Shown: positions 3,120 through 62,183, counted from the first letter of the whole stretch. The stretch is 63,872 nt of DNA, filler included, from Collodictyon triciliatum (GCA_043381765.1; 9 parts of 9 records of this genome joined end to end with filler, not necessarily neighbours in it), one strand, 5' to 3'. The notes: a model not told the origin generated them from the sequence alone. Numbers and translations are program-made.

Positions 3120-3719
3120 CTTGAATGTTTTGGTTAGGTTTGGTAATAAAGTTTAATTCTCAAAACTCAATGAAATAAGGTGGACGAATGTTTTTTTTTT
3201 GTTTTTTTTTTTTTTGTTATTGGTTTTGTTTTTTGTTTTTTTTTTGTTTTTTTGTTTTTATGAAAGAAATGTTATTATATATGGCCACATTAAAAATGAG
3301 ATGGTGTGACCTCCTTCCGACTGTGAGGACAACAAGGGGGTTTGTATCTGAACAAGACGAACCTGTTGATCGACTGACGCCGCGCCTGCCGTCCATTCGT
3401 TCTGTAGTCAGCGCCGTGAGAGGTTGCAGCCCGTGGAGAGAAAAGGAAGAGGGAAACAAGATGCTTGCTGGTTGACCTGCTTGTGCTGCTTCGTCCTTCC
3501 GAAATATGTCCAAAAATCACCACTTAAAGTCCAAAATTACAGCACAGACAGATAATGCACGCGTGACCTGCAATTGCATAGCGATGCTCCATCATATTCG
3601 ATATTGTAGATAATATAAATTTCACAATATATTTTCCGTATATGTAATTTTGGAATTGGAATTTAACTCTTAATTGAAATACACACGCTGCAACCCATTA
3701 TGGACTTTGCGGGGTATAT

Positions 3720-4478
3720 CAAGTTCTTCTGGTTCCAACGTTGTTGCGGAAACCCTGAGTTGCACGAAAGTCCAGGGAGACTCGGCAAGGAAGCCGCCTG
3801 CAAGTCTCTCTGAGTGGACGGTACTTTTGCACGGGGTTGAGCAAGTCGTTTACAACAAGAACAAGGCCCACAGGCTCACAAACGCGCTCGCCTCCTTCTT
3901 GAAAGCGAACAAACCTTGGGAAGAGACCATCCAATTGCGCTTACCGGATAGCGAAGGCCTTTGCCTGATCGCCTCCCGCACTGCAGAAAACGCCCGAAAG
4001 CTTCTGAATCTGAAGCAGGTAAGTTTGAGCGATATTATGAACAGCTTCAGCAGAAGTAAACCAAAAGAGACCTCGGCGATGCTCTACCAACTACCGCTGA
4101 ACGTGTGGCCGCAACTCCTTTGCGAGGAGTTGAAACCGTTCAGACCGACCCACGTGGAAATCAAAAAGGACAAAGGCTTCTTCACAGACACGGCCGTGGT
4201 GAAGCTTCTTTGCCATAAGAACCAGCTCCCTGCAAAGTTTACGGTAATGGGCAAAAAGTGTCCAAAGCGTATCCTCAAAGAGCGCCCGCCAGCTGCAAAC
4301 AACGAACGACAAGTAAAAGCCCCCGCAAAAGAATACACCTGCCAAGCGGACAAGCAGCAACGGGGTTAAGGAAGCCAAGGCCAGACAACAACAGAGTCCA
4401 CAAGACTCACAGCAGATACGCGCATACAGCGACAGCGATGATGACATGGAAGGAAATCTCGGTTCCTCTTCAGACTCT
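3720..4478 (+). mobile_element. Internal fragment of putative LINE ORF1, frameshifted near its 3' end
   Basis: Intronless and GC-richer than flanks; closely similar to 27130-27895 (shared YQLPLNVWPQLL.EELKPFRPTHVEIKK and KCPKRILKERPPAANN). Confidence 0.7.
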
Positions 4479-6936: not shown

Positions 6937-7036
6937 NNNNNNNNNNNNNNNNNNNNNNNNNNNNNNNNNNNNNNNNNNNNTTAATTAATTAANNNNNNNN
7001 NNNNNNNNNNNNNNNNNNNNNNNNNNNNNNNNNNNN
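6937..7036. other. Artificial contig linker N44-TTAATTAATTAA-N44 (also 13972-14071, 21007-21106, 28041-28140, 35074-35173, 42108-42207, 53546-53645, 60566-60665)
   Basis: Identical 100-nt spacer with stops in all six frames, present eight times; genes are truncated at these joins. Confidence 0.98.
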
Positions 7037-13835: not shown

Positions 13836-14388
13836 CTAAATCTACTTGTAGTTATTATAACCCATCAATCATATGAACTCAATAAGAAAAAGAGAGAGAA
13901 AAAGAGAGAGAAAAAGAGAGAGAAAAAGAGAGAGAAAAAGAGAGAGAAAAAGAGAGAGAAAAAGAGAGAGANNNNNNNNNNNNNNNNNNNNNNNNNNNNN
14001 NNNNNNNNNNNNNNNTTAATTAATTAANNNNNNNNNNNNNNNNNNNNNNNNNNNNNNNNNNNNNNNNNNNNTCTTTCTCTTTCTCTTTCTCTTTCTCTTT
14101 CTCTTTCTCTTTCTCTTTCTCTTTCTCTTTCTCTTTCTCTTTCTCTTTCTCTTTCTCTTTCTCTCTCTCTTTCTCTTTTTCTTTTTCTTTTTCTTTTTCT
14201 TTTTCTTTTTCTTTTTCTTTCTCTTTCTCTTTCTCTTTCTCTTTCTCTCTCTCTTTCTCTTTTTCTTTTTTTCTTTTTCTTTTTCTTTTTCTTTTTCTTT
14301 TTCTTTTTCTTTTTCTTTTCTTTCTGATTAACACATGCTTTTGTTTTATGATGTTTTGATTGTTTTTATTCAAATATTTTTTCTTTAG

Positions 14389-17300
14389 TATTTCGATTCG
14401 CTTCTGGACTTTGGTCACAAACTCTGCTAACTTTATTGGGGAAAAGAAGCAAGAAGCTGGTATTGTATTTCTGTATTTTATTTTTATCCTTTAAAATTCA
14501 AATGTCGTATAGCTATTCATATGTTAACTTTAATTTTCTTTATTTTTCCGCCAGAATACGAGAGAGAGGGACTCCAGGGCCTGCTGAAAATGATTCAGGA
14601 GGGAAACAAGTAATAATTTATTTATGTTTATTTTAATGATTAAATCGAAATTAAAATACTTTGAATCGAAAAAAAATTGATATTAAATTATGTATTATAG
14701 GGACGAAAAGTTTGTCTTTCTCATCGATGCCATCAACCAAATTCACCCGTCGCAAGGAACACCAGCTCCGCATCTGCTGACCTGGTTGCCCAAAGAAACG
14801 CCACCTAACGTTGCCATGGTTGTGTCGACCATTCATACCCATGAATCATGCACGGTATTTAAATTTTATTTTAATTTGTGCTTGCATGCTGGTTAGAATG
14901 ATTTTAAGTGGATTTTTGTTTAATTTATCTATATCACAAGTCTGCCAAGCAAAGTGGACTGGAGCCTATTCCTGTCACCAAGTTGACCGAGGGCGAAATT
15001 AAGGATGGTGTCGAATCATTCCTAATCCGCTATGACAAGACCCTGAGTGAAAAGCAAGTTGGGATGATTCTGGATGACTTTGAAGATACTGGTGAGATAT
15101 TTTCAAGAAGAGTATGTAATTTGATTAAATTTCCATGATATGATTTAGTTACAAATATCTGTTTTTTTCTATAGGCCATCCGCTCTATCTCCGCATCATT
15201 CTCGACGAAATCAGGGTCTTTGGTGTCTATGAGAAGCTTGATGATGAACTGTTCGCACTGCTTTCTACAGATGGTGTCATTGAGCTTTACACTCTCATTA
15301 TCCAGCGTTGGCAACTGAAGTTTGACAGTAAAGGTGAGTATTGATTGTACATATTTCATAAAAAAAAAAAGTACCAATTACAACTGAAACTTTTGTTGAA
15401 TTTTTTCTTTTTTGTACAGTGGCCTCGTCTGATGGAAAAGAGACAACTAAGGTCGATTATGTCTCCCTCTCGATGAAGGTACTCTTTATTTCCCGCATTG
15501 GCCTGAGTGAAGGTGACCTGGACAAGTACATGAAAGATGCGATTGGCACAGGATTCGAGCTTGCTGAATGGTTTGCTTGCTCTTGAATTTCAATAGAATC
15601 AATAGTTTTTAACTTTTTTTTCTTTTCTGTTGTTTATGTATCCATTCAAATAGGAAATCCTTCTTCTTTACCCTCGTCGAGTCGCTCTTCGTGCGTAATG
15701 GAAGGTTGGTGTTATTTCTCAATCTTTTGATTCTTTAATATGATCTTTGTGATAATTTATCTGGATATAATCTTTTTTTTATTCTTCCTTTCAGTTTTGT
15801 GCAGGATGATGGAGATGTTGGATTTGGTTCGCTGGCCATCGTTTGCATGGACGCTATTATTTGGATAAAACTAAAAATTTGTTTATTATAGATATATGTA
15901 CTTCCACCAGCTGCTGTTGGAGACCACCGAAAATGTCTACTTCTCCGATGAGAAAGAGATGGAAAAAACCCACGAAAAGTACGGAAAATGGCTGTTTGGC
16001 CAGTATTCTGAGGCTGCTGACGCGGATGAGGAGCTTGCTGCTGAGATTTGCTACCAGCTTCTGAAGGGCAGTTCGTTTGACTTGCTTGTCGAATACATGA
16101 AGCAAAATCATGTAATTTTTTTATTTTTCTAAATATTTTCAATTATTTTAGTTATGCCAAGATTTTCTCGGATTCATTTCAATATTTTATAGGTTATCAG
16201 TATCATGCTTAGTGGTCGCTATCGCTACGAGTTCTTTACATGCTGGAGAGCAATCAACGCAAGTGGAGCGGCGAACTACAAAGATGTTTATGGAACTTTG
16301 GCAAAGGTAGTAATATTTTTATATTTAATTATTATTTAGTTATAGATTTAGATATATATTTCTACTCACAAAATATATTTATAAATTATGATTTAATTTG
16401 TTTTTTATTTTTCAGTCTTTGGATAAAGTGGGAGACCTGCTTGTTGAATTTTTCTTGGAGTCTTTCGAGAATTCGTTTTTGTTGTCTGTACTGAGTGTGC
16501 GTCTTGGAAAGCATCAAACAGAAGGTATATAAGCTATTGTCTTTTTGAAGAGTTTAAGTCACCAAGGCTAGTTTATATGGTGATATTCAATAATATTAAT
16601 TTATAGATTCAAAGGCTGCTGATTACCTGAATCTTGGTCGTGTCTACAAGAACCTCCAAAAGTGAAAAAAAAAATTAAAAAAATAAATGATTGTTAATTA
16701 GGACATGATGATTAAATCTATGATAATTTCTAAAATACAAATCAATTAAACAGTTGGACTGAGTCCATGGTCTACTATAAGAGATGTCTCAATACAGTTG
16801 AGAAAAATACCGATAATACCTTGCGTATTGCTACCATTCATGAAGAGATGGGAATCATCTACCAGCAACTGGATAAGTAAAACTCGCCAGCCACTTTAAA
16901 TTAAATGTTAAAATTGTTTCAAAAAAGGTGTTCTGATTATTATTTTTACATAGAATTGATGAAGCTCTCGATGAATACAAGAAATCACTGGACTTGAGAG
17001 TCAAACAACTGGGCGAGAACGACTTGCAAGTGGCCCTATCACATGACCGCTTCGGAGACATCTACGTGAAGCAGGCAAAGTAACACTTTTATTAATTTTT
17101 ATTCCTATTTCTTATTCCCGCTTCTTTTTTTTTTTTTGAGATTCTAATGCTGATCGATTTTATCATAGAAATAAGCAAGCTCTGGTTGAATACACAAAGG
17201 CCATGGAAATCCGCCAAAAGAAAGTCGGAAACGAGCATCCCCTTGTCGCAACATCGTATCAGAACTATGGCCATGTATCTCTGTCTGAGGAAAAGTAGCA

Positions 17301-20300
17301 TATTTATTCAATTCAACTGGTTTATAAATTTGGTCATCATTTTTGAGAAATATTAATATTATTGAATCATCAAGGTATGAAGAATCTGTTGAAAACTACG
17401 AAAAAGCGAAATCAATCTTTGAAAAATCGCTGGGAGCTAAGCATGCATCTGTTGCCTCGACAATCCAGTTTATTGCAAACGTTCATCTTGCCAGCGGAAA
17501 GTAAGGATTTCTATTTTTTTTAAATTTTTTTTGCAGAGAATAATTGTTCATTTCAATTTTTTCACGATGTCTTTTGGTTTATATCTTTCATTTGTATGGA
17601 TGCTACTTAGGGGCTGTGTTTTTTGCATACATAATTTTAATTACAAATATATAATTACTTTTATTTTTTATAGGAAAACTGAGGCCATATCCTCACTAAA
17701 GCAATCGCTGGATATTTTCATATCTGCCCTGGGTGAAAATCATCCGAACGTCGTGGCCTGCTATGAGATGATTGGAGACGTCAGCCATGATTTGAAGGAG
17801 TATCTCTTATTATTAATTTAATTTTTAATTGAAAGGGAATTACATTTACTCATACTATCTTAGCTTTAAGGGTGCTCTGGAGGCGTATACGAAGACGCTG
17901 GATATTCGCATGAGAACGTTGGGCGAAAAACATGCAGATTATGCTACTTCCCTTGAAAATGTTGGCAGAACAAATTTTGAACTGAAAAGGTAAATTCCTG
18001 TGTTATTAAAATAAAGTATTTTGATCAAAAACATGTTAAAAATAGCAAAAATAATTATAATATGCATTTAGATTGGACCAGGTCGTTGAGTTCTTCCAGA
18101 AGGCAGCTGCCATCAGAAAGGAGACAAACACTGCTATGTTTTTAAAGGATGGAGCCCAGATAGACAACATTATCGGATTCATGAAGCAAAAATCAGAGAA
18201 TGAAGTACTCATTCAGCTTTACAAAACATTGATTCATTTATTCAGTAAGCTTTACTTCATGGATTATCTTGGAATATGCAACAGCTGTGAGGAAATCGAC
18301 AAGATTTACAAGGAACTGAAGCAGCATAAAGAAGCTGTGGCATTTTGGGCTGAGATGAAAGACAGATTTGCAGATAAACTCGGATGGATTCACTGCAGAA
18401 CATTAAATTCGTGCGAATACTTGTCCGTCCATTCAAATGGAATTGGAATCAACAAAGAGCCTGTCGAGTTTACAAGAGTCAGGAAATTCATCTGTGAAAC
18501 TCTTTATGATGCAAAACTGGATGAGGAATGGAATCGTGAGCAAATCATTACATCATTATTCAGAATTGTCTACATGTCAAAGACTAATGAAACCAAATCA
18601 AAGGCTGCATCTGATGCAATCACACTTTTGAATTTCATGAATGTTTCTTTTGGTGGAATGGATTTATCAAACATCAAAATTCCACATGCAAATCTGAGTA
18701 ATTCAATCCTTGATGGTGCAATCCTCACTGGTGCCAACTTGGATGGTGTTGATTTCACAAATTCGATGCTTGGTGATTGTGTTTTTGATAATGCAAAAAT
18801 GAATAATGTGAAATTCGGATTTCTCCATGATACATTAAATGGAAATGAAGGTAAGGTCTTGAGTATTTGTAGTTTTCAAGGACCGAATGGTGAAAATTGG
18901 TTGGCTTCCGGAAGTGATGATAAAACAATACGTATTTTGAATGTAGCCACAGGAAATCAAATCAAAAAATTAAATGGACATACAAGAGGAGTCACCAGTT
19001 TGCAAGGACCGAATGGTGAAAAATGGTTGGCTTCTGGAAGTGATGATAGAACAATACGTATTTGGGACGTGGCCACAGGAAACCAAATCAAAACATTAAA
19101 TGGCCATGAAGGATACATTAGTAGTGTTTGCAGCATTCAAGGACCGAATGGCGAAAATTGGTTGGCTTCTGGAAGAAATGATGGAACAATACATATTTGG
19201 GATGTAGCGACAGGAAACCAAATCAAAACATTAAATGGACACACAAGTATTGTCAGTAGAGTTTGCAATATCCAAGGACCGAATGGTGAACACTGGCTGG
19301 CTTCTGGAAGTTTTGATAAAACAATACGTATTTGGGATGTGGCCACAGGAAACCAAATCAAAACATTAAAAGGCCATGAAGGATACATTAATAGTGTGTG
19401 CAGTATTCAAGGACCGAATGGTGAAAATAGACTGGCTTCTGGAAGTAATGATAAAATAATATGTATTTGGGATGTAGCTACAGGAAACCAAATCAAAACA
19501 TTAAAAGGCCATGAAGGATACATTAATAGTGTTTGCAGCATTCAAGGACCGAATGGTGAACACTGGCTGGCTTCTGGAAGTAATGATAAAACAATACGTA
19601 TTTGGGATGTAGGCACAGGAAACCAAATCAATAAATGTGAAGGACATACAAGTGCTGTCATGAGTGTTTGCAGTATTCAAGGACCGAATGGTGAAAATTG
19701 GCTGGCTTCTGGAAGTGATGATAAAACAGTGCGCATATGGGATATAGCTTTTAGAAATCAAATTTCTTCCTTACAAAAATCAGCAGTGACATTTATTGAA
19801 GGGAAGAATTTTATTGAAACAGGAAGCCCTCCTGATATTACTGCAACATCCAAAGGAGAGTGTGATAGAACGGACCTAATTGAAACTAGCCATACCAAAA
19901 AAGCCGAAATGGTCAAAGTATATTTTCCAAGAAAGATACAAGGTGGCCATATTCGCCTTGGAAATACCACCGGACTCAGTCACTTTAACAAGTTGCTCTT
20001 ACTTTCAATCGGTGCAGTTTCCTTTGATACCGAGTTTGTAAGGTATTGTGAGCAGGGCAGATTCACTGAATTGCAAGCACTAATGATGACTGATTGCTAC
20101 GAGAATGGATGGGGCGTTGAGAAGGACGATGAGAGGGCAGAATATTGGAGGACGGTTGCACCCCTAAAAGTGTCATTGGATTTCGAGGGATTGAAGCATG
20201 TCGCGAAACAGGGCTCTAAGGAGGCTTTCAATATCTTAAAGGAAATGACCGAGATTAAACTTGATATTCTCAATAGGTATGAAGAAAAAATAGGAGAAAA

Positions 20301-20637
20301 ATACAAGTACCCTGTCGCTGTCTCTATTGTTGCTGAGTGCTATGAGAACGGATGGGGTGTTGAAAAGGACAGTGAATCAGCGGCCTGCTGGGTAGCTTTC
20401 GCTCTTAGGGCGGCTGGAAACTTTGAAAAACTAAAGCAATTAGTACAAAATGGCTCAAAAGAAGCATTCAATACTTTGGTCGAAATGGGTCAAATAGAAG
20501 ATATAGATAGACACGACGGAGTTAACTACATCTACCCACAGGCTATCTCGATTGTTGCTGAATGCTACGAGAATGGATGGTCTGTTGAAAAGGACACCAA
20601 GAAGGCAGCAGACTGGAGATGGAGGAAATCGTATTAA
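14389..20637 (+). CDS. NLR-like STAND protein: NACHT-type NTPase (NPHP3/TEP1-like, 5' truncated) + TPR array + pentapeptide repeats + 7 WD40 + Sel1-like repeats
   Basis: Walker B FVFLIDAINQI, WLPKETPPNVAMVVST, GHPLYLRIILDEIRVFG; 42-aa TPR exons (LGENHPNVVACY, LGEKHADYATSLENVG); terminal exon 18072-20637 with pentapeptide (IPHANLSNSILDGAILTGANL), WD40 and CYENGWGVEKD Sel1-like motifs. Exons join in phase. Confidence 0.85.
15773..15856 (-). mobile_element. Short 5'-truncated LINE 3' end inside an intron
   Basis: TTGTGCAGGATGATGGAGATGTTGGATTTGGTTCGCTGGCCATCGTTTGCATGGACGC matches the LINE 3' regions at ~59980-60040 and ~48390-48450; short A-tail; degenerate TSD TTATCTGGATATAA / TTATTTGGATAAAA. 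Confidence 0.75.
18841..19750 (+). repeat. Seven highly similar ~135-bp WD40 coding repeats
   Basis: 45-aa unit GH...V.S.QGPNGE.WLASGS.D.TIRIWDVATGNQIK; near-identical at the DNA level (unit 2 is three codons shorter). Confidence 0.92.
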
Positions 20638-21433
20638 CCAAGGTAAATATTCGAGATGTTCAAAAATTAATAATTCATTTCATGATAATCACTATTGATG
20701 TAGCTTGTCATTGGATGGATGTCCCCAGCCGACTTAATCGCTTTTTATCTGAGGTCCTCTAAACTTCAACTTAAGAAGTTTCAAAAATAAAACTGAAAAG
20801 AATAAGCCATCTGTGTTTTATTATGTACAATAAATCATTTGTGCATTTAATATATCTTTTTTTTCACTTTTTCTCTTTCTCTTTCTCTTTCTCTTTCTCT
20901 TTCTCTTTCTCTTTCTCTTTCTCTTTCTCTTTCTCTTTCTCTTTCTCTTTCTCTTTCTCTTTCTCTTTCTCTTTCTCTTTCTCTTTCTCTTTCTCTTTCT
21001 CTTTCTNNNNNNNNNNNNNNNNNNNNNNNNNNNNNNNNNNNNNNNNNNNNTTAATTAATTAANNNNNNNNNNNNNNNNNNNNNNNNNNNNNNNNNNNNNN
21101 NNNNNNTTTTTTGTTTTTTTTTTTGTTTTTTTTGTTTTTTGAACTGCCCGTAACGGATCAGGGCTGATTTGCTTCGGATTTCATATTTCCAGATTTTGCC
21201 ACATTTGGTGTTAGATGAAACAGAAGATTTTATGTCATCAATTATGGAATTTATATAATTATGTCAAAATTACCACATTACATGATTTTTTAGACTTTTA
21301 GTGCTATAACTTGCTTATATATTGTAATATTCCATCACTAATGAAGAGTTGTCCACTTACTAATTTAATGCTCGGATTCATGTGGGGTACACTACTCAGG
21401 AAACCATTTCGCCGCTGATTCTGATCAATATCT

Positions 21434-26949: not shown

Positions 26950-28040
26950 AGAGTGAGAACTGGTAAGAACATCACACTTTCTTTGTAAAACTCTTCCCAC
27001 TTACCACAACCCCAGCAGAAGAAAAGTTACTCGAAGATTGTGAATCGTACAGTATGTGGTTGTGGGGGTTTCCGTGGAACGGCTGTACTACTTGAAACCA
27101 AAGCCGCGACCCGCCGAAGGCTTCCCAAGTTGCAGCCAGTTCTTCTGGTTCCAACACTGGCGCGGAAAGACCCCGAGTTGCACGTAAGTCTAGGAAGACC
27201 CGTGCAAGGAAGCTGCCTGCAAGTCTGTCTGAGCGGACAGTATTCTTGCACGGGGTCAAGCAAGTCGTTTACAACAAGAACAAGGCCCGCAGGCTCACAG
27301 ATGCGCTCGTCTCCTTCTTGAAAGCGAACAAACTTTGGGAAGAGTCCATCCAATTGCACTTACCAGACAGCGAAGGCCTTTGCCTGATTGCCTTTTGCAC
27401 TGCAGAAAACGCCCGAAAGCTTCTGAAGCTGAAGCAGGTAAGTATGATAGATTTTACGAACAGCTCAGCATAAGTAAATCAACAGAGACCTCGGTGATGA
27501 TCTACCAACTACCGCTGAACGTGTGGCCGCAACTCCTTCGTGAGGAGCTGAAGCCGTTCAGACCAACCCACGTGGAGATCAAAAAAGGACGAACGCTTTT
27601 TCACATACACGGCCGTGGTGAAGCTTCTTTGTCACCAGAACCAGCTCCCTGCAAAGTTTACAGTCATGGGAAAAAAGTGTCCAAAGCGCATCCTCAAAGA
27701 GCGTCCGCCAGCCGCAAATAACGAACGACAAGTAAAAGCCCCGCAAAAGAATACACCCGCCAAGCAGACAGGCAGCAACGGGGTCAAGGAAGCCAAGGCC
27801 AGGCAACAACAGAGTCTGCAAGACTTACAGCAGATACGCGCATACAGCGACAGCGACGATGACATGGAAGGAAATCTCGGTTCCTCTTCAGAATCCTCGC
27901 ACTCGAGTCCTTCATCGCCAATACCGGACAAGCCCGTACATAGCAAGACCCAAGAGCAGCGCATCTCCAAACCCCGAAAGAAATCCCCCCTTAAACTACC
28001 CATTCAGACTGACGTGAATATGGTTAACATAGGAGGCCTC
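26950..28040 (+). mobile_element. 5' part of a LINE: degenerate ORF1 running into a probable AP-endonuclease start; cut by contig end
   Basis: KKSYSKIV N-terminal motif, ORF1 body shared with 3720-4478, Ser/acidic linker, then VNMVNIGGL resembling the APE start motif (.NI.GL); carries frameshifts and a stop. Confidence 0.7.
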
Positions 28041-28140
28041 NNNNNNNNNNNNNNNNNNNNNNNNNNNNNNNNNNNNNNNNNNNNTTAATTAATTAANNNN
28101 NNNNNNNNNNNNNNNNNNNNNNNNNNNNNNNNNNNNNNNN

Positions 28141-35058: not shown

Positions 35059-35173
35059 CTTTTTTTTTTTTTTNNNNNNNNNNNNNNNNNNNNNNNNNNN
35101 NNNNNNNNNNNNNNNNNTTAATTAATTAANNNNNNNNNNNNNNNNNNNNNNNNNNNNNNNNNNNNNNNNNNNN

Positions 35174-41400: not shown

Positions 41401-42207
41401 TCATAGATCTGACATATCCGGTTGAAACTGACCGTTACATCTGTTTCAGTAAATGAACATATCCCCTGGCCGCTTATGAGGTTGCTTCTCCCAAACTATC
41501 AAGGTGAAGCACCCTCGGGGTTTCATTCATATACATTTACAGAACTGTAGCAGACTACTTTGAAACCATTGAGACCATCTCGCACATTCATTAAAATCGA
41601 TACTTCAAGAATCATATACCAACCTTCCAATTTGATTGAGGGCGGCTATGCACTGGTAAGAATCCTAAATACCCTGAAATTAAAAGGTGCTTGTGCAAAA
41701 GAAGTAACAGGCTTTGCAGAGCTCCACAGCGCTTATTTGATTCTTGTCTTCCAGCGTGCTGTGAGACCTTAAATAATGTGCAGAAAAGTTTTACCTCATA
41801 TTTTTGGAATGACTTTGATGTTGAAATGTTTGAAATTGATCAAAAGAGGAAGACTTTTAGTAAAATTAGTAGAGAATGTTACTTGCACGCAGGCACCGAA
41901 TACTTAAATTGTCAGATATTTACCTGTTATTTAAAGTCACATAAAATACCAATTGTGGTATTGTCTATTAACTGTGTGAAGTAAATATGTTCCCACTTAA
42001 AAGATAAGATTCGTTCTATACAAAAAAATACATAGTATCTTTCAATTAAATTTCGTTACAATATTATGGCTGTTCAGTGGATATTTTACCTCTTCCAATG
42101 ACCTTGANNNNNNNNNNNNNNNNNNNNNNNNNNNNNNNNNNNNNNNNNNNNTTAATTAATTAANNNNNNNNNNNNNNNNNNNNNNNNNNNNNNNNNNNNN
42201 NNNNNNN

Positions 42208-45200: not shown

Positions 45201-48200
45201 CCATCGTCTCGCTTGAGTTGAATGAAAGAATAAAAAACAAACCTTCATCAAAGCACCAAATCTCCCTCTGTCCATCACTCACATCTAAAATGTAGGTATC
45301 CATAAAGCAAAACTGATTGTTGATTGAGACGCCACGCGGATGTTGCCGGCTGATGGGTGTGTTTTGAGTATCACTGAGTATTCTTCCGCTCTCGTCACTC
45401 ATCTCATACTCAAAAATCGAGCCCGAAGCCTCTATGCCGTTTGTATTTATCCCTCCCCATATCATCACTCTTGTTCCAACCACAAGGCTCGCTGAAAAGT
45501 ATCGGACTCCACATTCTTGAAATGATGAGTCAAGTCCCGCTATGCTTGTCCAAATCCTCTTTGCTTTTATTTTTAATTTTGGGTATTACTTATTTTTGTT
45601 ATAATTGCTTATTTCTCTCTGAGTTTGTTAAATACATGAATAATCACATAGTATGGCATTCATTTTTCATGCTTACCAATCGAATATCTCCGAAAAATGG
45701 GCTCCTGATAACCGGGATAAATTCCACCAATAACAAATAGAGCTCCCTGGTGGTGACCAAATGCCTGTTGATTTTTATTTTTATTTTTATTTTATTTTAT
45801 TTTATTTTTTTTGCTATTATTCTTCCTTTCAATTTTGTGCAGGATGGTGAAAATGCTGGCAAAAATGCCTGTTGATACAGTTACATTCGTAAACCTCTTT
45901 GATAGGTCATGAATTTCCGGGTAATCGATATTTGCATTCAAAATAAGTATACTTCACTAAATTTGATATGAACATGGAATAAAATGATTATACTGCATGT
46001 AACACTGCTGGTGCGCAGTCTGGGTTGGATGGATGGCATACGGATTCTGCTTCAAGTCTTTCCCATCGCTCTTCAGCTGAGTCGCAAGATATCGGTACGT
46101 AAGGAACAGCACGCCATAAGTTTTCTTTTGAAAATCATGATTACACGATAGTTTCGATTTTCAGATATGCAAACCGATATGATGGAGCCATAGGTCATTG
46201 ATAGGCATCTCTATTTGCTGCGCTATCCTTCCACCAAACATCGCTATCGTGGCATTATCTACCGCAGCTATGTGTGGATGTGTTCTGCCGAGTGGGTATC
46301 GAGGCAAGCTGCTGTCAATCCACTCCAGTGATTCTGTGGCAATATCAGCAAAGGTTATATCAAAGTATGTATTGCTTTCCTCTTACTATTTCCAATGACA
46401 AAAAGCTCATATATTGAATCCAATTTTGTGTAAGACATGAATATTTCATCTCATTAAGAACAAATGAAATAGATAATGGAAAGTCTGCTTGAGATACCTG
46501 CATCAAAAACCCAAAAATCAGTTAAACTATGTATTGTTCTACCAGAGATGATATGCATCTTATTTTTAATGACAATCGAATTTATATAGTAGCGCGGAGA
46601 TGGTGCGATGATAGGATATTGTGTTTCGTAGTCGGGAATAGGAGATGTGATTATTTCGGCTGTCCCTTTATCTATAGTTTGATTAGTATGCTAATGAACA
46701 TTTTCATTACTGATAAAACGACATAATTAGAACGTCAATATTGTTTTATGAGGTACCAAATACCTATTTCGATGACTACCACGTCGTTTGTAAATGTCGC
46801 TTGGAAGTCAGAGGTGCCGCCAAAAACTAGCAATTTATCCTCAAATACTGAGGCTGCTCCATTGGCGATAAATCGAATACCATCAAAAGCAATTGGTACG
46901 GTCCATTCGTAGGTTGCTAGTTGGAGTTTTTTTATTTATTGAAAATATTAAGATTTTTTATTTTAATCAAAAATAGAAAATGTAAAGAATTCCAGATAAC
47001 TATCTTTTAAAATTCATATGATATTTACTCAGATTGAACATGTAGAAGTTCGATTGGTAGTTGTAATATATATCACATCCTCCAAACAAGACCAAAGAGT
47101 CTCTGTAAAGGGCCATTTGCGTATATATTAATAAAGCTGCATTATCCTCGTTTTCTGGCTTTGTCCTTATTCTTTTCCAAACTCTCGTTTCTACCAAATA
47201 AAGATCGGTAGGTTGAAGATTAAATACATGCATTTGATTACTTTTCAAGCTTATTTGATGTATTAAAATCCAAAAAAATCATATCATGGAAATGAACCTG
47301 TGTCGAATGACCAGAACAGATATTCAAGATACCCATTTGAGCCTCCATAAACGTATATGATATCGTTAAATGCTGCACAATTCATGTTCTCAACAGGTCG
47401 AGGTATACTTGAAGAATCATATTCGATTTTTTCCCATTTGAATGTGTCCAAATTCAGAGAGTACATATCGTTTAACCCAACAAACCCAGCCCAGGAGCGT
47501 CCGCCAAAAAGATATAGCTATATAAAAGGACATTAAAGAAAAGGAATATGCATTCGACAGTGAAGTAATAAATATAGTATTAGCATTCGAAATTATAAAT
47601 GGTACCTTGTTTCTGATAATACTCGTGCAATAAAAGAATCTTCTCTCTGGTATCTCTCCTTTTGTCATAACCCACGACCATTCAAGATTCGCTGTTATAT
47701 AATTGTTACTCAGACTGAATTTAAGTCAGGAAAAAAGTGTGTACAGAAAAAGACTCACATGAATTCAGAATCCATAGTCGCTCGAAAATTGGAATGTTCG
47801 CTTGGTACTCGAGGCTGGCTCTTCGTTTTATCAAGATTTTATATAAGTGATAGATTAATGATTCCAGGTGATTGGTTACAACGCAGTTAAAAAAAGGGAC
47901 TAAGTTACTGGAGCGTTCATAAAACTATATTTTCATAATCATAATATTATAGGATTAAAGTTACTCGTCACCCAGAACATAAACCAGCTCGTCCCGTGAG
48001 GCGATGTACCCACCACAGAATCCCAATGGCTCGTTTGAAGAATAGTGCCAGTCTATGAGCCGCATGCAAATGATGAGAACGAAACAAAAAAAACATGCGT
48101 ATGTCATGCTCTGTTGGAAGGTGGCAGACCGCCGAGCGTTGTTGCAGCTGCCAAACAAATGAAGCAGACTCCGAGACCAAGGCAAAGCGCCACGAAAGAG

Positions 48201-48361: not shown

Positions 48362-49140
48362 CACTCTTTATTTATTGTCGTTATCCTATTTGTGGAAGTT
48401 GGTGAATTTGTTGACCTTGGCTCGCTGGCCATCGTTTACATGGACGCAACTTGGTGGCCGGGTGGCGGAGAAGTAGCCGGTAATCAGGAATTCCATCCTG
48501 CGGTTTGGCCTGTAGCCTGGGTCTTGTGCTTGCATGAGAGATACAAGGCGATGTTTAATCTCCTTCTCGGCCTATTTCCACATGTCCCTCTCACACGGTC
48601 TGAGTAGTAGAGAACGCGCAGGTGGCGAAGGTAGCTGTTGAGGAAAGAGATTTGTATGATGTCATTCAGCCTATTATCAGGAATGGATGGCTGGTTGTTG
48701 AGTCTTGTTTTGCGTGAGTATATGCGTGCTATCCACACAGTCCATAGCAAATGGCCTCGCGTCACTGCCCATAATGTTTTTGCATCTGGGCGCAGCTGTT
48801 GCAGAGGCCCAAATATCGCCTGGATTGGGCCAACAGCTGCAGCCGTCTTGAGTGTCAGTCGAAGAATCTCGCCGGCTGTTCCGCGCAGGTTTTGAGCGAA
48901 GGGACATTGCACAAATGTGTGCTCAATGGATTCATCACCGTTGATGCAAAGTGTGCATTGTTGGGAGACTTTGCCAGCTTTTGCCGCGCGTGTGCCTATC
49001 CATAGCTCCCTATTGATGATATTAAGCATTAGAGAGCGGTGATTTGGAAGGACTTGCGGGGTTCGTGCTTGTCTCCAGCTCGCGGTGAGCGGGGTGTGGG
49101 TGATGCCCAGTGTTTCTCCCCACCGTTGATGCTTTGACTT
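48362..49140 (-). mobile_element. 5'-truncated L1/Tx1-like LINE: ORF2 C-terminus (zf-RVT) and 3' UTR
   Basis: CTLCINGDESIEHTFVQCPFA (CxxC..E...H....C) and LWTVWIAR motifs typical of L1/Tx1 ORF2 C-termini; possible degenerate TSD TTTGCTTCATTCG / TTTGCTTTTCATCCG. Confidence 0.85.
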
Positions 49141-49397
49141 TTTGCTTTTCATCCGTGGTTATTGAAAGAAAGGTATTCGATAATTCTTGAATACATGATT
49201 TTTTATGATTTTGCTCAAATAAACAAAATGGTTTTGTGTATAAGTGCGCAAATAATTCTGCACGCATAACATCATATGAACTATTACCAAGCAAGCAACT
49301 GCTTTTGCCACAAGCCGAACGCAGACGCCTTTTGCTGACTCACAAAGAAGCACAAGACACACAGACGATTGGAGGAGGCTGAGCCGCAGACTTTGGA

Positions 49398-51286: not shown

Positions 51287-52657
51287 TCAGCAACAACTCT
51301 TTCTAGCTCTTGGGGGTTGCGGGCTGGTTTTGATATCGATGGTAGATTGTGAATTGCTGGTTTGCCCCTTTGGTTTCTTATGCGGGACGCTATAGCTTCG
51401 TCGGGGAGAGACATCTTGAACATTTTCAGCTGCATGCAGAAGCAAGTATTAGCTCCTCAAGAGCATCGAAGGTAATAAACCGAGTAAAGCAAAAGATATA
51501 TTGGGTGACGAACCTATTGTAACAAAGACATTTTCAACATTGGTGCTGGCCATCGCGCTTGTCTCTATATAGAATGCACCAATTTCTTGTGCGTAAGTAG
51601 AAGCAATATCCGATTGAACAGCTCTTTCGGATTCAAGGTCTAGCTTATTGCCTGCCAGAACCATTACGGCATGGTCGGGTCCGGATATACGGAATTCCTT
51701 TACCCATAGCTTTGCTGATTCGAAAGACGTCTTTTGAAAAAGTAAGATCACCGTTATTAGGCAAAAGAAAAATGTGTAAACCAAAATATTAGAAAAAATG
51801 TAATATTGTATAAATTTGGTGCACGAAATGAAGAAGATATTCGATTGAGAAACAAGTCAAAACATGTTATAGAGATGAGTAGAAGCTCGAATGGATTACG
51901 GTGCTGGTTAGGTCAAAGACGATCACCACAGCACGAGTGTCTCTGTAATACATCGGAGCCAAACTTCGATATTGTATACACCGAATAGATGTATGATTCA
52001 GCCAATATTTTGATGATATATTCATTCAGCACAGATGGTCAGCAGTAATGAAGATGCATAAAATAGAGTCCGTGTCATTTAATCATTATGTAATTTTGTA
52101 ACAATATTTGATATATTACATATTTATATAAAGCAATTATGCAAAATACGATAATAAAGGAAGGTGTATGGAAGATGGACTGGTATTTTCTTGTCCAGCA
52201 GTATCCCACAATTGAAATTCGAAAACTCCGTTTGATGCAGTATAATTACGCTTCATGTAAGCAGCCCTAAACCATACAAACAAAATATATGTACCATGAG
52301 ATTACTTCATTGCAATCTTAATTAAAAAAAAATTCCTTTATTCGATTCAAAGAATCTTAATGAAAAATTATAAGAAAATTAGAAAGTGCTTAATAGAAGC
52401 TAAATTCCGAAAAAAAATGAAAAAGAGTATGGGCTATTTAGGGTGGTGGATATGGGAAACGAGAGTGATCCACAGAAAGGTTTTTTGAAAGAAAGAAAAA
52501 GAATATATGGACAGAACCCGATGGTTGGCGTAGTCAGCCCGATGCTGCCGTTAACAAAGTTTTCTGCGAGACATGTTTTCCCCACCCCGCAGGCTCCAAG
52601 TAGGACAACTTTGATCTCCTGGGTTACCGCAGTGTCTTGAAGGAAGTTGGATGCCAT
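51287..52657 (-). CDS. Rab GTPase, Rab5/21/22-like, 5 exons, C-terminal CC
   Basis: KVVLLGACGVGKT, PTIGAAY, WDTAGQEKYRSLAPMYYR, GNKLDL, ETSA, ...KSCC*. Confidence 0.92.
51974..52186 (-). other. AT-AC intron (213 nt, phase 1) in the Rab gene
   Basis: CAA GAA A|ATACCAGT...GTGTATAC|AA TAT CGA restores the conserved GQEKYRSLAPMYY. Confidence 0.8.
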
Positions 52658-54342
52658 TCTTCAGACTTGTCTGATGTGCCAAAGTCTCACAAAATAAGTT
52701 CACCAATTAAATAAAGTATATGCTTTATTATTCTTTTGTAGAGAGGTAATTATTTTCTGGTTTTTTTTTCTCTAAACTTTCGAGGCCGGAAAAATTACTC
52801 AGAGAATGTGGGATTAAGAGACAGAAAAGATAAAAAAAGAGAGAAGGGAAAGAGGCCAGCCAGCAAATGGTGAGTATCTCTATTAATTGTTTCGATTTCA
52901 GGCTAGGAAATCGGATTGCAAGAAGGAAGCAATAATAAAAAATAAATAAAAAAATTTAAAAAAAAAAGCCATTTGTCTTTAGGCTTTCGGGTGTTTTACT
53001 TCTGCTTGCGCTTCTGATCTGCTTTGCTTCTTGGGAGTCGATCACCCAACCCAGGTTTGTTTGTTTTCTTTGTGATAATTATGACACGCAGGCCGATTCC
53101 CTTTGGTTAAACTTTTCTAGCTAATTAAGGGTTATATAACTTATATAAAAAGTCATCACAACATTTTCTCTTAATCTGGAAAATATTCTGAACTAGAACA
53201 GCTGCGTCTGCGGGTGAGAATCTGCTTGTGTGGCTCAGACAGCACTCTGATAACAAGAATAGTGAGTCTCGCAGAGGAGGAAAGGCTCCAGTTGGTCGTA
53301 GCTATGGAAAACTTTCATATGATTCGGTATTCAAGGTGACACTTAGCGCGCTGTATTTCATTACGCGCTCCAGATCTCCAGCTAAAAAAAAAGAAAATTT
53401 TTGCTGAAAGCGCCCAGGAGTAAACAATCCGCCTGGTGTTTTTTTTTTCTTTTCTTTTCTCTTCTTTTCTTTTCTTTTCTTTTCTTTTCTTTTCTTTTCT
53501 TTTCTTTTCTTTTCTTTTCTTTTCTTTTCTTTTCTTTTCTTTTCTNNNNNNNNNNNNNNNNNNNNNNNNNNNNNNNNNNNNNNNNNNNNTTAATTAATTA
53601 ANNNNNNNNNNNNNNNNNNNNNNNNNNNNNNNNNNNNNNNNNNNNAAAAGAAAAGAAAAAAAGAAAAGAAAAAAAGAAAAGAAAAAAAGAAAAGAAAAAA
53701 AGAAAAGAAAAAAAGAAAAGAAAAAAAGAAAAGAAAAAAAGAAAGAAAAAAAGAAAAGAAAAAAAGAAAAGAAAAAAAGAAAAGAAAAAAAGAAAATAGA
53801 AAAATAGGCCACCTTATTCCTTGTGTATTCGTCCGGGACACGTTGACGTTGGGTCAACCAAAGTTGGTACTCTCTACATATTGAAATAATTATTTCTTTC
53901 ATTCCTGAATTGCATCTTGATTTTATGACATAACATTACACATCAGTACTAAAAGTTTGGAAACATTAAGAATCATGCAAAGCGTTGGAAGAAATGGGGA
54001 CATGGAAGGGCGGTAAGAATCCCTGCCCTGCTAAACATATTGATCAAAAGCCTAATCAACGATAAGCCATACTCTTTCCTGATCCAAGAACGAGCCGGAA
54101 AGTAATTGTTGAGGAGGAATGCGGAGCCTTCACTGGGTCCAGTCTTGGCGAGTGGAAGCGTGTGGCGCTTGCCCTTCTTCGACATCCTGTGGGCCATTGT
54201 TCCGAGTGTGAGAAGTACGGAAAGACTGAAAGGAAAAGAAAAAAAAAAGAAGGAAAGAAGATAAAGGAAAGCCTCTCGTTGTATTTCCCCCTCTATCTTG
54301 TTTTTTTTCTTTATTTCCTCCAGAGCCGACAAACGCGAGCAA

Positions 54343-59948: not shown

Positions 59949-59957
59949 TCCATATTC

Positions 59958-60565
59958 TTTCCTTTAATCTTACTCTAAGTTTGTGCGAGATGGTGGAGAT
60001 GTTGGCTTTGATTCGCTAGCCATTGTTTGCATGGACACTACTTGGTGAGTTGGTTGCGGAGAAGTAGTCCGTAATCAGGGATTGCATCCTGCGGTTTGGC
60101 TTGTAGCCTGGGTCTTGTGCTTTCATGAGAGATACAAGGCGAGGTTTGATATCTTTCTCAGCCTCTTTCCACATGTCTCTTCTCACGGGGTCGGAGTAGT
60201 AGAGAACATGCAGGTGGCGAAGAAAGCTATGGAGGAAAGAGATTTGAATGATGTCATTCAGCCTTTATCAGGAATGGGTGGTTGGTTGTTGAATCTTGAT
60301 TTGCGTGAGTATATGCGTGCTATCCACATAGTCCATATCAAATGGCCTCGCGTCGCTGCCCAGAATGTTTTTGCATCTGGACGCAGCTGTTGCAGAGGCC
60401 CAAATATCGCCTGGATTGGGCCAACAGCTGCAGCCGTCTTGAGTGTCAGTCGGAGAATCTCACCGGCTGTTTCGCGCAGGTTTTGAGCGAAGGGACATTG
60501 CACAAATGTGTGCTCAATGGATTCATCACCGTTGCTGCAAAGCGTGCATTGTTGGGAGACTTTGC
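59958..60565 (-). mobile_element. Second copy of the LINE ORF2 C-terminus and 3' UTR, degenerate; cut by contig end
   Basis: Near-identical to 48390-48975 (QCPFAQNLR..AGEILRLTLKTAAAVGPIQAIFGP). Confidence 0.85.
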
Positions 60566-62183
60566 NNNNNNNNNNNNNNNNNNNNNNNNNNNNNNNNNNN
60601 NNNNNNNNNTTAATTAATTAANNNNNNNNNNNNNNNNNNNNNNNNNNNNNNNNNNNNNNNNNNNNTTTTCTCCTCATTCGAATAAAAATCTTTATCTAGT
60701 TTGGAAAAGTTTCTCTTTAAATATACTCCTTTTGATTTGATTTGATTTGATTTGATTTGATTTGATTTCATTTGATTTGATTTCATTTGATTTGATTTCA
60801 TTTGATTTGATTTCATTTGATTTGGTTTGGTTTAATTTTGTTTTTTGTTTTTTTGTTTTTCTTTTGTTTTTTGTTTTTTGTTTTTTGTTTTTTGTTTTTT
60901 GTTTTTTGTTTTTTGTTTTTTGTTTCTTGTTGTTTGTTTTTTGTTTTTTGTTTTTTGTTTTTTGTTTTTTGTTTTTTGTTTTTTGTTTTTTGGTATAATA
61001 AAGGTTATGGAAAGGGGGAACTTTAATGCTATTCTTAGTCTGGGTTTACTCCCTTTCCGCTTCTCCATGCGTCATATCAATTACACTGTTCACATGAGTT
61101 GATATCAGAGAAGTTTACCTCTAGTTACTGTCAGCCTTTCCATGCCTGCTGCTCTTGTGCTTCTTCGAAGCTCTCTGGACGAAGCAAAAACCAACACCGA
61201 TTCTATTACGAGCCCTTTGCCTGCGAGCGAACCGGAGCGAAAGTATATCACAATATTGTTAAACAGCGTAGAAAGCCAACAACAAACAACCAGCAAAGCC
61301 AGGACAGCAGGCTCAGTCCCTGACATAAAAGAAGGAAAGGAAAAGGAAAAGGAAAAGGAAGAAAAGAAGGAAAGACAAAACACCCACTTTAGAATTGGTA
61401 AACCATGTTTCTTTTGTATGCTTCCACAAACACTGGGCACACACCTTTATCAATACAAAGCAAGTTGAACGCACAACGCGTCGGCAACAGCGACCCTCAC
61501 TCTCATGCAAACAGACAGAAAGGACAATGCGCGAACCACTTGCATTTGTGTTTTCCTGAGTACTCTGCCTGCCTTCTGGTCTAGAAGGAAAAGAAAATGG
61601 ATCCAATGCGATAAGCTGTCATCGCCAAGAGAAGTTATTATGTGCGCACCCACCCTGGAAATCGTGTGTGGGTGTGTGTGTGAAAGGGTATTGATAGTGT
61701 GGGCCGATGCAGGAAGCCCTCCAGCCACAAGCGCGAATCAAAAAGCAGAGATATCACCGCGAGCAAGCAAAGGAAGAAAAGAGGGAAACCCGCGCATCAC
61801 AACAGAAGAGGGAGATTACGCGGTATCATTCAAGAAAGAAAAAAAAAAGAGTTTATGTTTTTCGTGTTCTTTTGGTGTTGGCCTTGCCCAGGACGATAGC
61901 CCGTAGGAATCACCTTTGTGCAGGCGGTTGATTCTTTCATCGCCCATTTTCTTTATAGTATCGTCATATTCTTTATTCTGACACCTATCGCCCATCCAGA
62001 ATTGAGTGACTCATTTTTTTTTTTCATATTTTATTTTTCCAAAGCCCTTTTGTTTTTAATCTTGACTTACAAAAAGGAAAAAAGGCACTCACACCAACGC
62101 AGCAAACTTCTCTGTCTCTCCTCCCCTAATGTTTTTATTTATTTATTTATTTATTTATGCTACATCACAGAAGATTAAAGATA

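Follow-up and report, generated by a model that had tools for sequence, protein, structure and literature searches.

A predicted DUF4062-clade NACHT protein with stacked TPR, pentapeptide, WD40 and Sel1 repeats from a small protist family

Proteins of the STAND/NLR type usually pair one nucleotide-dependent switch with one kind of repeat sensor. NPHP3, which presumably ends in kinesin-light-chain-type TPRs (judging from the name of the Pfam model TPR_NPHP3), belongs together with TEP1 and NWD1/2 to a clade of DUF4062-linked NACHT proteins, each of which carries one repeat type. We describe here a gene located on the plus strand at positions 14389–20637 of a 63,872-nt window (the whole stretch of DNA that was analysed). 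In contrast to those proteins, its product, as predicted from sequence, is a DUF4062-clade NACHT protein with a sensor region in which TPR, pentapeptide, WD40 and Sel1 repeats are stacked, and it is a member of a small, undescribed protist family. A literature search found no paper describing this layout, or describing NACHT proteins of Diphylleia or Hexamita, two genera with proteins that share modules with its product.

In human TEP1, NWD1, NWD2 and NPHP3 the DUF4062 domain adjoins NACHT and is a TIR-like NADase, according to a preprint (10.64898/2026.05.01.722283) that reports NADase activity in vitro for TEP1 and none for NWD1, NWD2 and NPHP3, and in which TEP1 and NWD1/2 end in WD40 repeats. 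The relatives of our gene in Diphylleia rotans are similarly arranged: full-length members have DUF4062 directly before the NACHT-like NTPase, and TEP1 is the nearest named relative of their domain for nucleotide binding and oligomerization (NOD), matching that of the transcript P0017 at 25–26% identity (E ~1e-9). The family differs from TEP1-type proteins in having no TROVE and no vWA domain, and in the N-terminal calponin-homology (CH) domain found in P0017.

The fungal NWD and HET-E/D/R NLRs provide a second point of comparison. Like the gene described here, they combine a NACHT-type NTPase with WD40 units that are unusually alike and that vary at few columns, as described in a study (PMC4986451) in which highly internally conserved repeats are defined by more than 85% identity over at least 100 residues. 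They belong to an unrelated lineage, and the window gene differs from them in carrying other repeat types both before and behind its WD40 units. Its central five WD40 blades are 76.5% identical on average, which is below the fungal criterion and far above the identity of ordinary blades.

The spliced gene and its modules

The exon chain, rebuilt from sequence and checked by script, comprises 18 exons and ends in a TAA stop at 20635–20637 (Table 1). All 17 introns have GT..AG ends, with lengths of 64–187 nt and a GC content of 0.22, and the joined frame extends through 1,535 codons with zero internal stops. The introns all lie in the first 3.7 kb of the gene, leaving none in the last 2.56 kb. 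A further exon considered at 15795–15860 was dropped, since both the homologues and the RNA joints agree with joining 15704 to 15892 in phase. A single spliced gene is represented here by its 3′ three-quarters. At its 5′ end, a metatranscriptome contig has a loose end at 14393 that extends upstream of exon 1 and translates as TNLSNYVESV, where P0017 has TNLSNYVESI; the mRNA thus has further upstream exons that have no counterpart on the genomic contig.

The sequencing runs aligned to the gene were X1 and X2 (guessed to be RNA), X5 (the metatranscriptome) and X3 (DNA-type). RNA-type contigs support nine of the 17 introns (1, 2, 3, 7, 8, 11, 13, 15 and 16) among the 15 joints listed out of 56, with 38–62 letters on the shorter side of each joint in X1; none of these nine is among the joints listed for X3. 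The other six of the 15 do not fit the model and are non-GT–AG, three being located within the WD40 array and three near introns 6, 7 and 14, and we read them as paralogues or repeat slippage. Depth peaks over the WD40 array are inseparable from cross-mapping between repeats within the gene.

The C-terminal repeat region is continuous and is made up of approximately ten kinesin-light-chain-type TPRs, a helical cap bearing an AA..A.TLLN motif, a pentapeptide beta-helix, a seven-bladed WD40 domain, a linker and three Sel1 repeats. Exons 12–17 encode one TPR unit each, in 123 or 126 nt, and are separated by phase-2 introns; five of these six single-unit exons match TPR_12 (PF13424) with E values of 2e-4 to 2.5e-6. 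The 42-residue register of the TPRs holds for ten units and runs across the 17989/18072 joint, the first ~126 residues of exon 18 being three further units in the same register. When this part of exon 18, which precedes a conserved block, was compared to the TPR region of the family using hhalign, the probability of a match was 82% (E 1e-5, 122 columns). An AlphaFold2 model of the last exon's initial 276 residues (predicted local distance difference test [pLDDT] 87, predicted TM score 0.80) contains three helix pairs in its TPR part, followed at residues 197–247 by a beta-helix with one strand per five residues (pLDDT 90–98). The best fold matches of the model are KLC2 (3ceq, E 3e-4), alr1298 (6uv7) and Rfr23 (2o6w), at 11–23% identity; the likeness to kinesin light chain TPRs and to pentapeptide proteins of the Rfr and MfpA type is one of fold and implies no functional link.

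The remaining modules are recognized by Pfam, with scores of 41.1 bits for pentapeptide repeats (PF00805; cut-off 20.2), 214.7 bits over seven stretches for WD40 (PF00400) and 44.5 bits over three stretches for Sel1 (PF08238; cut-off 30.7). No leucine-rich repeat is found among the Pfam matches on the exons or on the WD40 flanks of the last exon (the best 25 of 50 families in one scan), and the protein is thus not an NLR in the strict sense. The WD40 array displays seven QGPNGE anchors spaced 42–45 residues apart, and its units repeat with a period of 135 bp and 82% DNA matches between units. At the protein level the central five blades range from 69 to 89% identity around the mean given above, all seven average 68%, and two of the 21 pairs reach 89%. 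Blade 2 is three residues short. Differences among the blades cluster in 14 of 45 columns, with a dN/dS of 0.92 there as compared to 0.27 elsewhere. The GC content of third codon positions (GC3) also varies along the gene. It is 0.51 for the upstream exons and 0.46 for the TPR part of exon 18, falls to 0.30 over the conserved block and to 0.25 over the WD40 array, and climbs again to 0.36 in the linker and 0.445 in the Sel1 region. The break that delimits the low stretch (18538–19761) falls at a module boundary and not at an exon boundary.

An earlier note on this DNA had proposed an in-phase exon chain leading from a NACHT domain through TPR, pentapeptide and WD40 to Sel1 repeats, so that a single STAND NTPase would be followed by repeats of several types. 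The exon structure, open frame, Pfam matches and TPR register bear out both proposals, and the coordinates that the note gave for the 17989/18072 joint and for the 2.56-kb last exon are correct. Its description of the last exon as a separate block of modules holds in that the exon is intronless, but the exon opens with three TPR units that continue the register of the upstream array; and the 'MSK' with which its helical segment opens is not a start, lying inside the conserved block at a position where homologues have other residues.

We considered whether the chain instead represents two neighbouring genes (a NACHT–TPR gene and an independent pentapeptide–WD40–Sel1 gene) or an assembly chimera. 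The contig is short and the assembly fragmented, and the 17989/18072 joint, for which the earlier note had sought RNA evidence, is not among the 15 joints listed out of 56. One X5 contig (record 29, 235 nt) lies on 18070–18220 with 0 differences, with 84 of its letters placed elsewhere, and is suggestive at most. Nevertheless, the joint keeps phase 2 as do all of the TPR introns, the 42-residue register crosses it, and the peptide ENVGRTNFELKR-x-DQV that spans it aligns gap-free, and is fully or partly conserved, in five of five collinear transcripts of another organism, Diphylleia rotans. In addition, no ATG-initiated open reading frame is found near 18072, the frame being open from 18061. 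Two genes or a chimera are thus extremely improbable.

A decaying or non-functional paralogue might also be suspected, given that the 5′ part of the gene is absent from the contig, that intron 7 harbours a dispersed repeat and that blade 2 has lost three residues. Against this, the 18 exons read through 1,535 codons free of stops and frameshifts, parts of the last exon are matched by RNA-type contigs that show 0 differences (records 8, 13 and 29), and the 5′ loss is explained by the contig ending in a microsatellite. We consider decay to be highly unlikely.

The NTPase half of the chain starts between the Walker A and Walker B motifs. In the collinear P0017 the P-loop, AESGIGKS, is located ~45 residues before the point at which exon 1 starts. 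The Walker-B exon alone matches Pfam NACHT (PF05729) with an E value of 0.019 over profile positions 81–128. The full NOD of P0017 matches nSTAND1 (24.5 bits) and NPHP3_N (23.0 bits) about as well as it matches NACHT, and we conclude that the NTPase of the window gene is NACHT-like and a borderline case by the Pfam NACHT profile. In P0017, the 1,121 N-terminal residues comprise a CH domain (6e-11), DUF4062 (Pfam, 7.8e-11) and, after these, the NTPase. DUF4062 is present in all three homologues that reach the N-terminus, namely P0017 (by Pfam) and P0167 and P0169 (by precomputed PF13271 matches and alignment), and the motif SVTE.E is common to these three proteins and TEP1.

Relatives and the origin of the layout

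HMMER, run exhaustively against 1.84 billion representatives with residues 1–276 of exon 18 as query, returned 5,428 matches at E ≤0.001. Among 150 matches listed, the part that precedes the conserved block (the first 130 residues) was reached only by P0017, P0018, P0019 and a 77-residue fragment; tblastn added P0023. These four named sequences are Trinity transcripts of Diphylleia rotans (EukProt EP00002). Word-index searches for longer proteins were uninformative: residues 1–275 of the exon brought up giant pentapeptide proteins only, and residues 1–185 gave 93 candidates of which none was significant, a search that missed even P0017 and so has no bearing on absence. A search with the NOD of P0017 added P0167, P0168 and P0169 (the last with TPRs only) from the same transcriptome, as well as distant DUF4062–NACHT proteins that include TEP1. 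By tblastn, five transcripts run collinearly with the window gene's exons (P0017, P0019, P0023, P0167 and P0168); P0017 is the only one seen to span the whole layout, and the other four match over what they contain. Model residues 1–1250 align to residues 700–1945 of P0017 in a single alignment with 48.7% identity and 16 gaps, and the NOD halves of the Diphylleia relatives are 54–62% identical to that of the window gene.

The order of modules in the Diphylleia family is that of the window gene: a NACHT-like NOD, TPR_12 repeats, degenerate TPRs, the AA..A.TLLN block, pentapeptide repeats, WD40, a linker and a Sel1-like tail. Module numbers differ: P0017 has 14 or more WD40 repeats and a single Sel1-like unit, as compared to seven and three in the window gene. 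That one unit corresponds to the first of the window's three, and P0168 matches the second and third. P0018 matches the last exon only and has no match to the NOD exons. Its residues 204–314 and 359–634 both match 18070–18402, the degenerate-TPR and helical part having apparently been duplicated. No Diphylleia transcript is identical to the window gene, which is thus a paralogue or the gene of a related organism, and whose small family has to date been found in Diphylleia-type protists only.

The conserved block also occurs elsewhere. According to the earlier note, the AA.NAIT.L–pentapeptide–WD40 part makes up the C-terminal half of a distinct NACHT–WD40 family, and we found such a TPR-less NACHT–[AANAITILN]–pentapeptide–WD40 family in Hexamita inflata (where members are annotated 'Pentapeptide repeats-containing protein' or 'WD40 repeat protein'), in Diphylleia rotans (P0042) and in metagenomes. 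A profile hidden Markov model (HMM) of the ~95-residue block matched 62 of the proteins compared, motif included, at 67–130 bits; the window block scored 129.5 bits against this model, with the window sequence included in the seed alignment. The two families have in common the conserved helix S-K-t..AA.NAIT.LN and ~12 pentads, followed by WD40. They differ in what lies upstream. In the TPR-less family the block directly follows the NOD, its distance from the P-loop being 332–457 residues in 26 of the 28 proteins with a recognizable P-loop upstream (521 and 706 in the other two), which leaves no space for a TPR array in the 26, whereas ~10 TPR units intervene in the window gene and the corresponding distance in P0017 is ~874. 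Their NACHT domains are of different types: three TPR-less N-termini match Pfam NACHT clearly (E 1.5e-9, 2.1e-8 and 5.6e-5) and no DUF4062 was found in the three. When the 180 residues that precede the block in TPR-less proteins (a comparison set that included the pentapeptide giant P0004) were compared to the corresponding part of the window gene, the hhalign probability was 0.1%, with no sign of a shared origin there.

For pentapeptide–WD40 clusters in Cyanobacteriota and Ciliophora we have leads from a language-model atlas only. When prokaryote species genomes were scanned with the window block, six loci came up, all of them generic pentapeptide proteins that match at HMM positions ≥18 only and that are without the motif; the search patterns were built from the window alone, which makes this weak evidence of absence.

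In a tree of the block (62 rows, 106 columns) the nine TPR-linked blocks fall on one side of a branch with support of 93/84 that is present in 100% of bootstrap trees, and the window block pairs with P0020, a 132-residue fragment (99/88). In the NOD tree the TPR-only P0169 is outermost, followed by P0167 and then by an unresolved group that includes the window gene. There is no supported conflict between the two trees.

These trees bear on the principal proposal of the earlier note, according to which a retroposed or horizontally acquired pentapeptide–WD40–Sel1 cassette was recently captured onto an intron-rich NACHT–TPR gene. Several features invite such a reading, including an intronless 2.56 kb that follows 3.7 kb with 17 introns, the low GC3 of the block and WD40 array (0.30 and 0.25, against 0.51 upstream), the presence of the block–WD40 unit in a separate NACHT family, and the existence in P0169 of the same NOD with TPRs only. 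The joined layout, however, is found gap-free across the joint in five collinear Diphylleia transcripts that are 38–49% identical to the window gene overall, and the window block is nested, beside P0020, in a single TPR-linked clade. The intronless exon opens with TPR units and closes with Sel1 units of ordinary GC3 that are also present in P0017 and P0168; the module boundary lies ~130–155 residues inside this exon and not at its start. 'MSK' is not a conserved start, and all six prokaryote loci are generic. The intron-poor 3′ end can also be produced by 3′-biased intron loss, which is an established route to such ends. An intronless exon behind many introns is no evidence of capture when a repeat register crosses the boundary. 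As regards what the earlier note had itself set against its proposal, trees of the two halves that agree and the same layout elsewhere were largely found. Recent capture at this locus is therefore very unlikely.

Any fusion is old and family-wide, with no support for retroposition or for bacterial transfer. The layout most likely arose once, before the family diversified, by fusion between a NACHT–TPR gene and the C-terminal half of a gene of the NACHT–[motif]–pentapeptide–WD40 kind. An old fusion of two STAND families is the likely origin, and Diphylleia has both parent kinds as well as a TPR-only relative. The array would then have grown through duplication of one-exon TPR, WD40 and Sel1 units.

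We regard the explanation as a whole as probable, with the encoded protein a predicted STAND (NLR-like) NTPase of the DUF4062-linked NACHT clade (TEP1, NWD1/2, NPHP3). A number of points weigh against it. The 17989/18072 joint is missing from the 15 joints listed out of 56, and most of the aligned run contigs show a likeness of only 90–99%, so that paralogues or related strains may have contributed some of them. The Walker A P-loop and N-terminal domain are absent from the contig, whose start falls in a microsatellite that stops 64 nt before exon 1; as a consequence, statements about the NTPase and effector of the window gene draw on paralogues that are 38–49% identical overall. The full NOD of P0017 scores 25.3 bits against Pfam NACHT (E 1.5e-5), where the cut-off is 26.7. 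An NADase output is not assured, because only TEP1 was active in vitro. Finally, the GC3 drop in the block and WD40 array is unaccounted for by a simple old fusion followed by quiet descent; exchange of the block–WD40 unit between paralogues would explain it.

The contig and its surroundings

The window is a string of separate contigs, mostly ~6.9 kb in length with one of 11.3 kb, which are connected by eight linkers that each consist of 44 N, 12 bases and 44 N (Table 1). The 12 bases at 14016–14027 read TTAATTAATTAA, as seen at that one linker. Features in the window are not to be read across linkers; the gene is located wholly on one 6,935-bp contig (14072–21006). AG-rich microsatellites of the kind found at both ends of this contig occur throughout the window.

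Intron 7 (15705–15891) owes its odd length to a dispersed repeat of ~90 nt that sits inside it. Copies that are 75–88% alike occur in three other contigs of the window (59952–60040, 45765–45859 and 48389–48447), and the recurrence of the repeat indicates that the gene's contig belongs with its neighbours. The repeat gives a depth peak in RNA-type and DNA-type runs alike, and loose ends are present there. A C/D snoRNA considered in intron 7 was dropped, there being no Rfam match and the segment being the dispersed repeat. The Rfam scan of the contig found no family above chance, with a single match of 22 bits against a gathering score of 103.

Table 1. Positions of the gene's exons and modules and of other features, in window coordinates
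Feature	Position	Strand	Remarks
Exons 1–2	14389–14459, 14555–14609	+	Walker A-to-Walker B stretch; 'ISIRFW...' aligns with P0017 'VESISIRFW'
Exon 3	14701–14854	+	Walker B FVFLIDAINQ; 66% identity to P0017
Exons 4–7	14941–15091, 15175–15333 (GHPLYL), 15420–15570, 15654–15704	+	Remaining NTPase and helical part of NOD
Exons 8–11	15892–16111 (YMYFHQLLLE), 16193–16306, 16416–16524, 16607–16661	+	C-terminal NOD helices, start of TPR array
Exons 12–17	16754–16876, 16954–17079, 17169–17294, 17375–17500, 17674–17799, 17864–17989	+	Six TPR_12-type units
Exon 18 (last)	18072–20637	+	2,566 nt, intronless
Degenerate TPR units (n = 3)	18073–18450	+	42-residue register
Helical cap, start of conserved block and motif KAASDAITLLNF (18604–18636)	18451–18636	+	
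Pentapeptide beta-helix, ~12 pentads	18637–18822	+	Pfam PF00805
WD40 blades (n = 7)	18835–19761	+	135-bp period
Sel1-like units (n = 3)	20071–20148, 20317–20391, 20542–20616	+	Pfam PF08238
Linkers	6937–7036, 13972–14071, 21007–21106, 28041–28140, 35074–35173, 42108–42207, 53546–53645, 60566–60665		
(TCTTTC)n microsatellite, contig start	14072–14325		5′ exons of the gene lie beyond
(TTTCTC)n microsatellite, contig end	20870–21006		
Dispersed repeat, ~90 nt, in intron 7	15767–15856		

Other contigs contain further open frames. Two closely similar ones, at 3674–4369 (+) and 27233–28088 (+), have ...YQLPLNVWPQLL.EELKPFRPTHVEIKK...AVVKLLCH.NQLPAKFTVMGKKCPKRILKERPPAANNERQVKAP in common and look like a repeated gene or mobile element. 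A 224-residue open frame at 48484–49158 (−) includes a Cys/His-rich stretch, CTLCINGDESIEHTFVQCPF, which presumably resembles the one at the end of the ORF2 proteins of non-LTR retrotransposons. An open frame at 51449–51856 (−) contains a small-GTPase-like exon, LAGNKLDLESERAV...ETSA, that presumably resembles Rab-type GTPases.

Predicted function

The mechanism that we predict for the protein is inferred from the precedent of APAF-1 and NLRs together with the N-termini of its relatives. By analogy with those proteins, the repeat region would hold the NTPase off and bind a ligand; binding would permit nucleotide exchange and then oligomerization, and oligomerization would gather the N-terminal domains. 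In full-length relatives these are CH and DUF4062, and their assembly might lead to NAD+ hydrolysis. The DUF4062 domain of the relatives is predicted to adopt a TIR-like NADase fold, and the S-V-T-E-x-E motif is retained in it.

The gene might instead encode a housekeeping scaffold (ciliary, vault or cytoskeletal, as NPHP3, NWD1 and TEP1 would suggest) rather than a sensor for immunity or self-recognition. The nearest named NOD relative is TEP1, with NPHP3 added by domain matches; P0017 carries a calponin-homology domain; and, in the preprint cited above, NADase activity in vitro was lacking for NWD1, NWD2 and NPHP3. On the other hand, one transcriptome contains at least seven diverged paralogous transcripts, with between seven and more than 14 WD40 blades and some without WD40, and the 69–89% identity of the blades, combined with variation at 14 of 45 columns (dN/dS 0.92, against 0.27), is the pattern described for fungal recognition NLRs in PMC4986451. 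A scaffold appears somewhat unlikely to us. Because many diverged paralogues occur in one transcriptome, blade number is variable and variation is focused in near-identical blades, a recognition role may be favoured over housekeeping, with roughly even chances of being correct.

More speculatively, the family could serve a deep-branching protist lineage (CRuMs) as a recognition repertoire that is diversifying, in which pentapeptide–WD40 modules are swapped or gene-converted between paralogues of two NACHT families and in which the output is a TIR-like DUF4062 NADase. Such swapping would account for the break in GC3, for the near-identical blades and for the heavy cross-mapping over the WD40 array, and we advance this proposal tentatively, considering it rather doubtful.

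In the family described here, one predicted DUF4062-clade switch carries four kinds of repeat in a fixed order that has been kept among diverged paralogues, and the TPR-bearing and WD40-bearing branches of the DUF4062–NACHT clade are thereby linked. The AANAITILN motif and the pentapeptide repeats form an adaptor that precedes WD40 propellers in at least two protist NACHT families. Together with the report of NADase activity for DUF4062, this layout provides a testable model of sensing and output in a unicellular eukaryote. If the tentative proposal of a recognition repertoire were true, an NLR-type system for immunity or for discrimination of self from non-self would have arisen outside animals, plants, fungi and bacteria, on the chassis of the vault protein TEP1.

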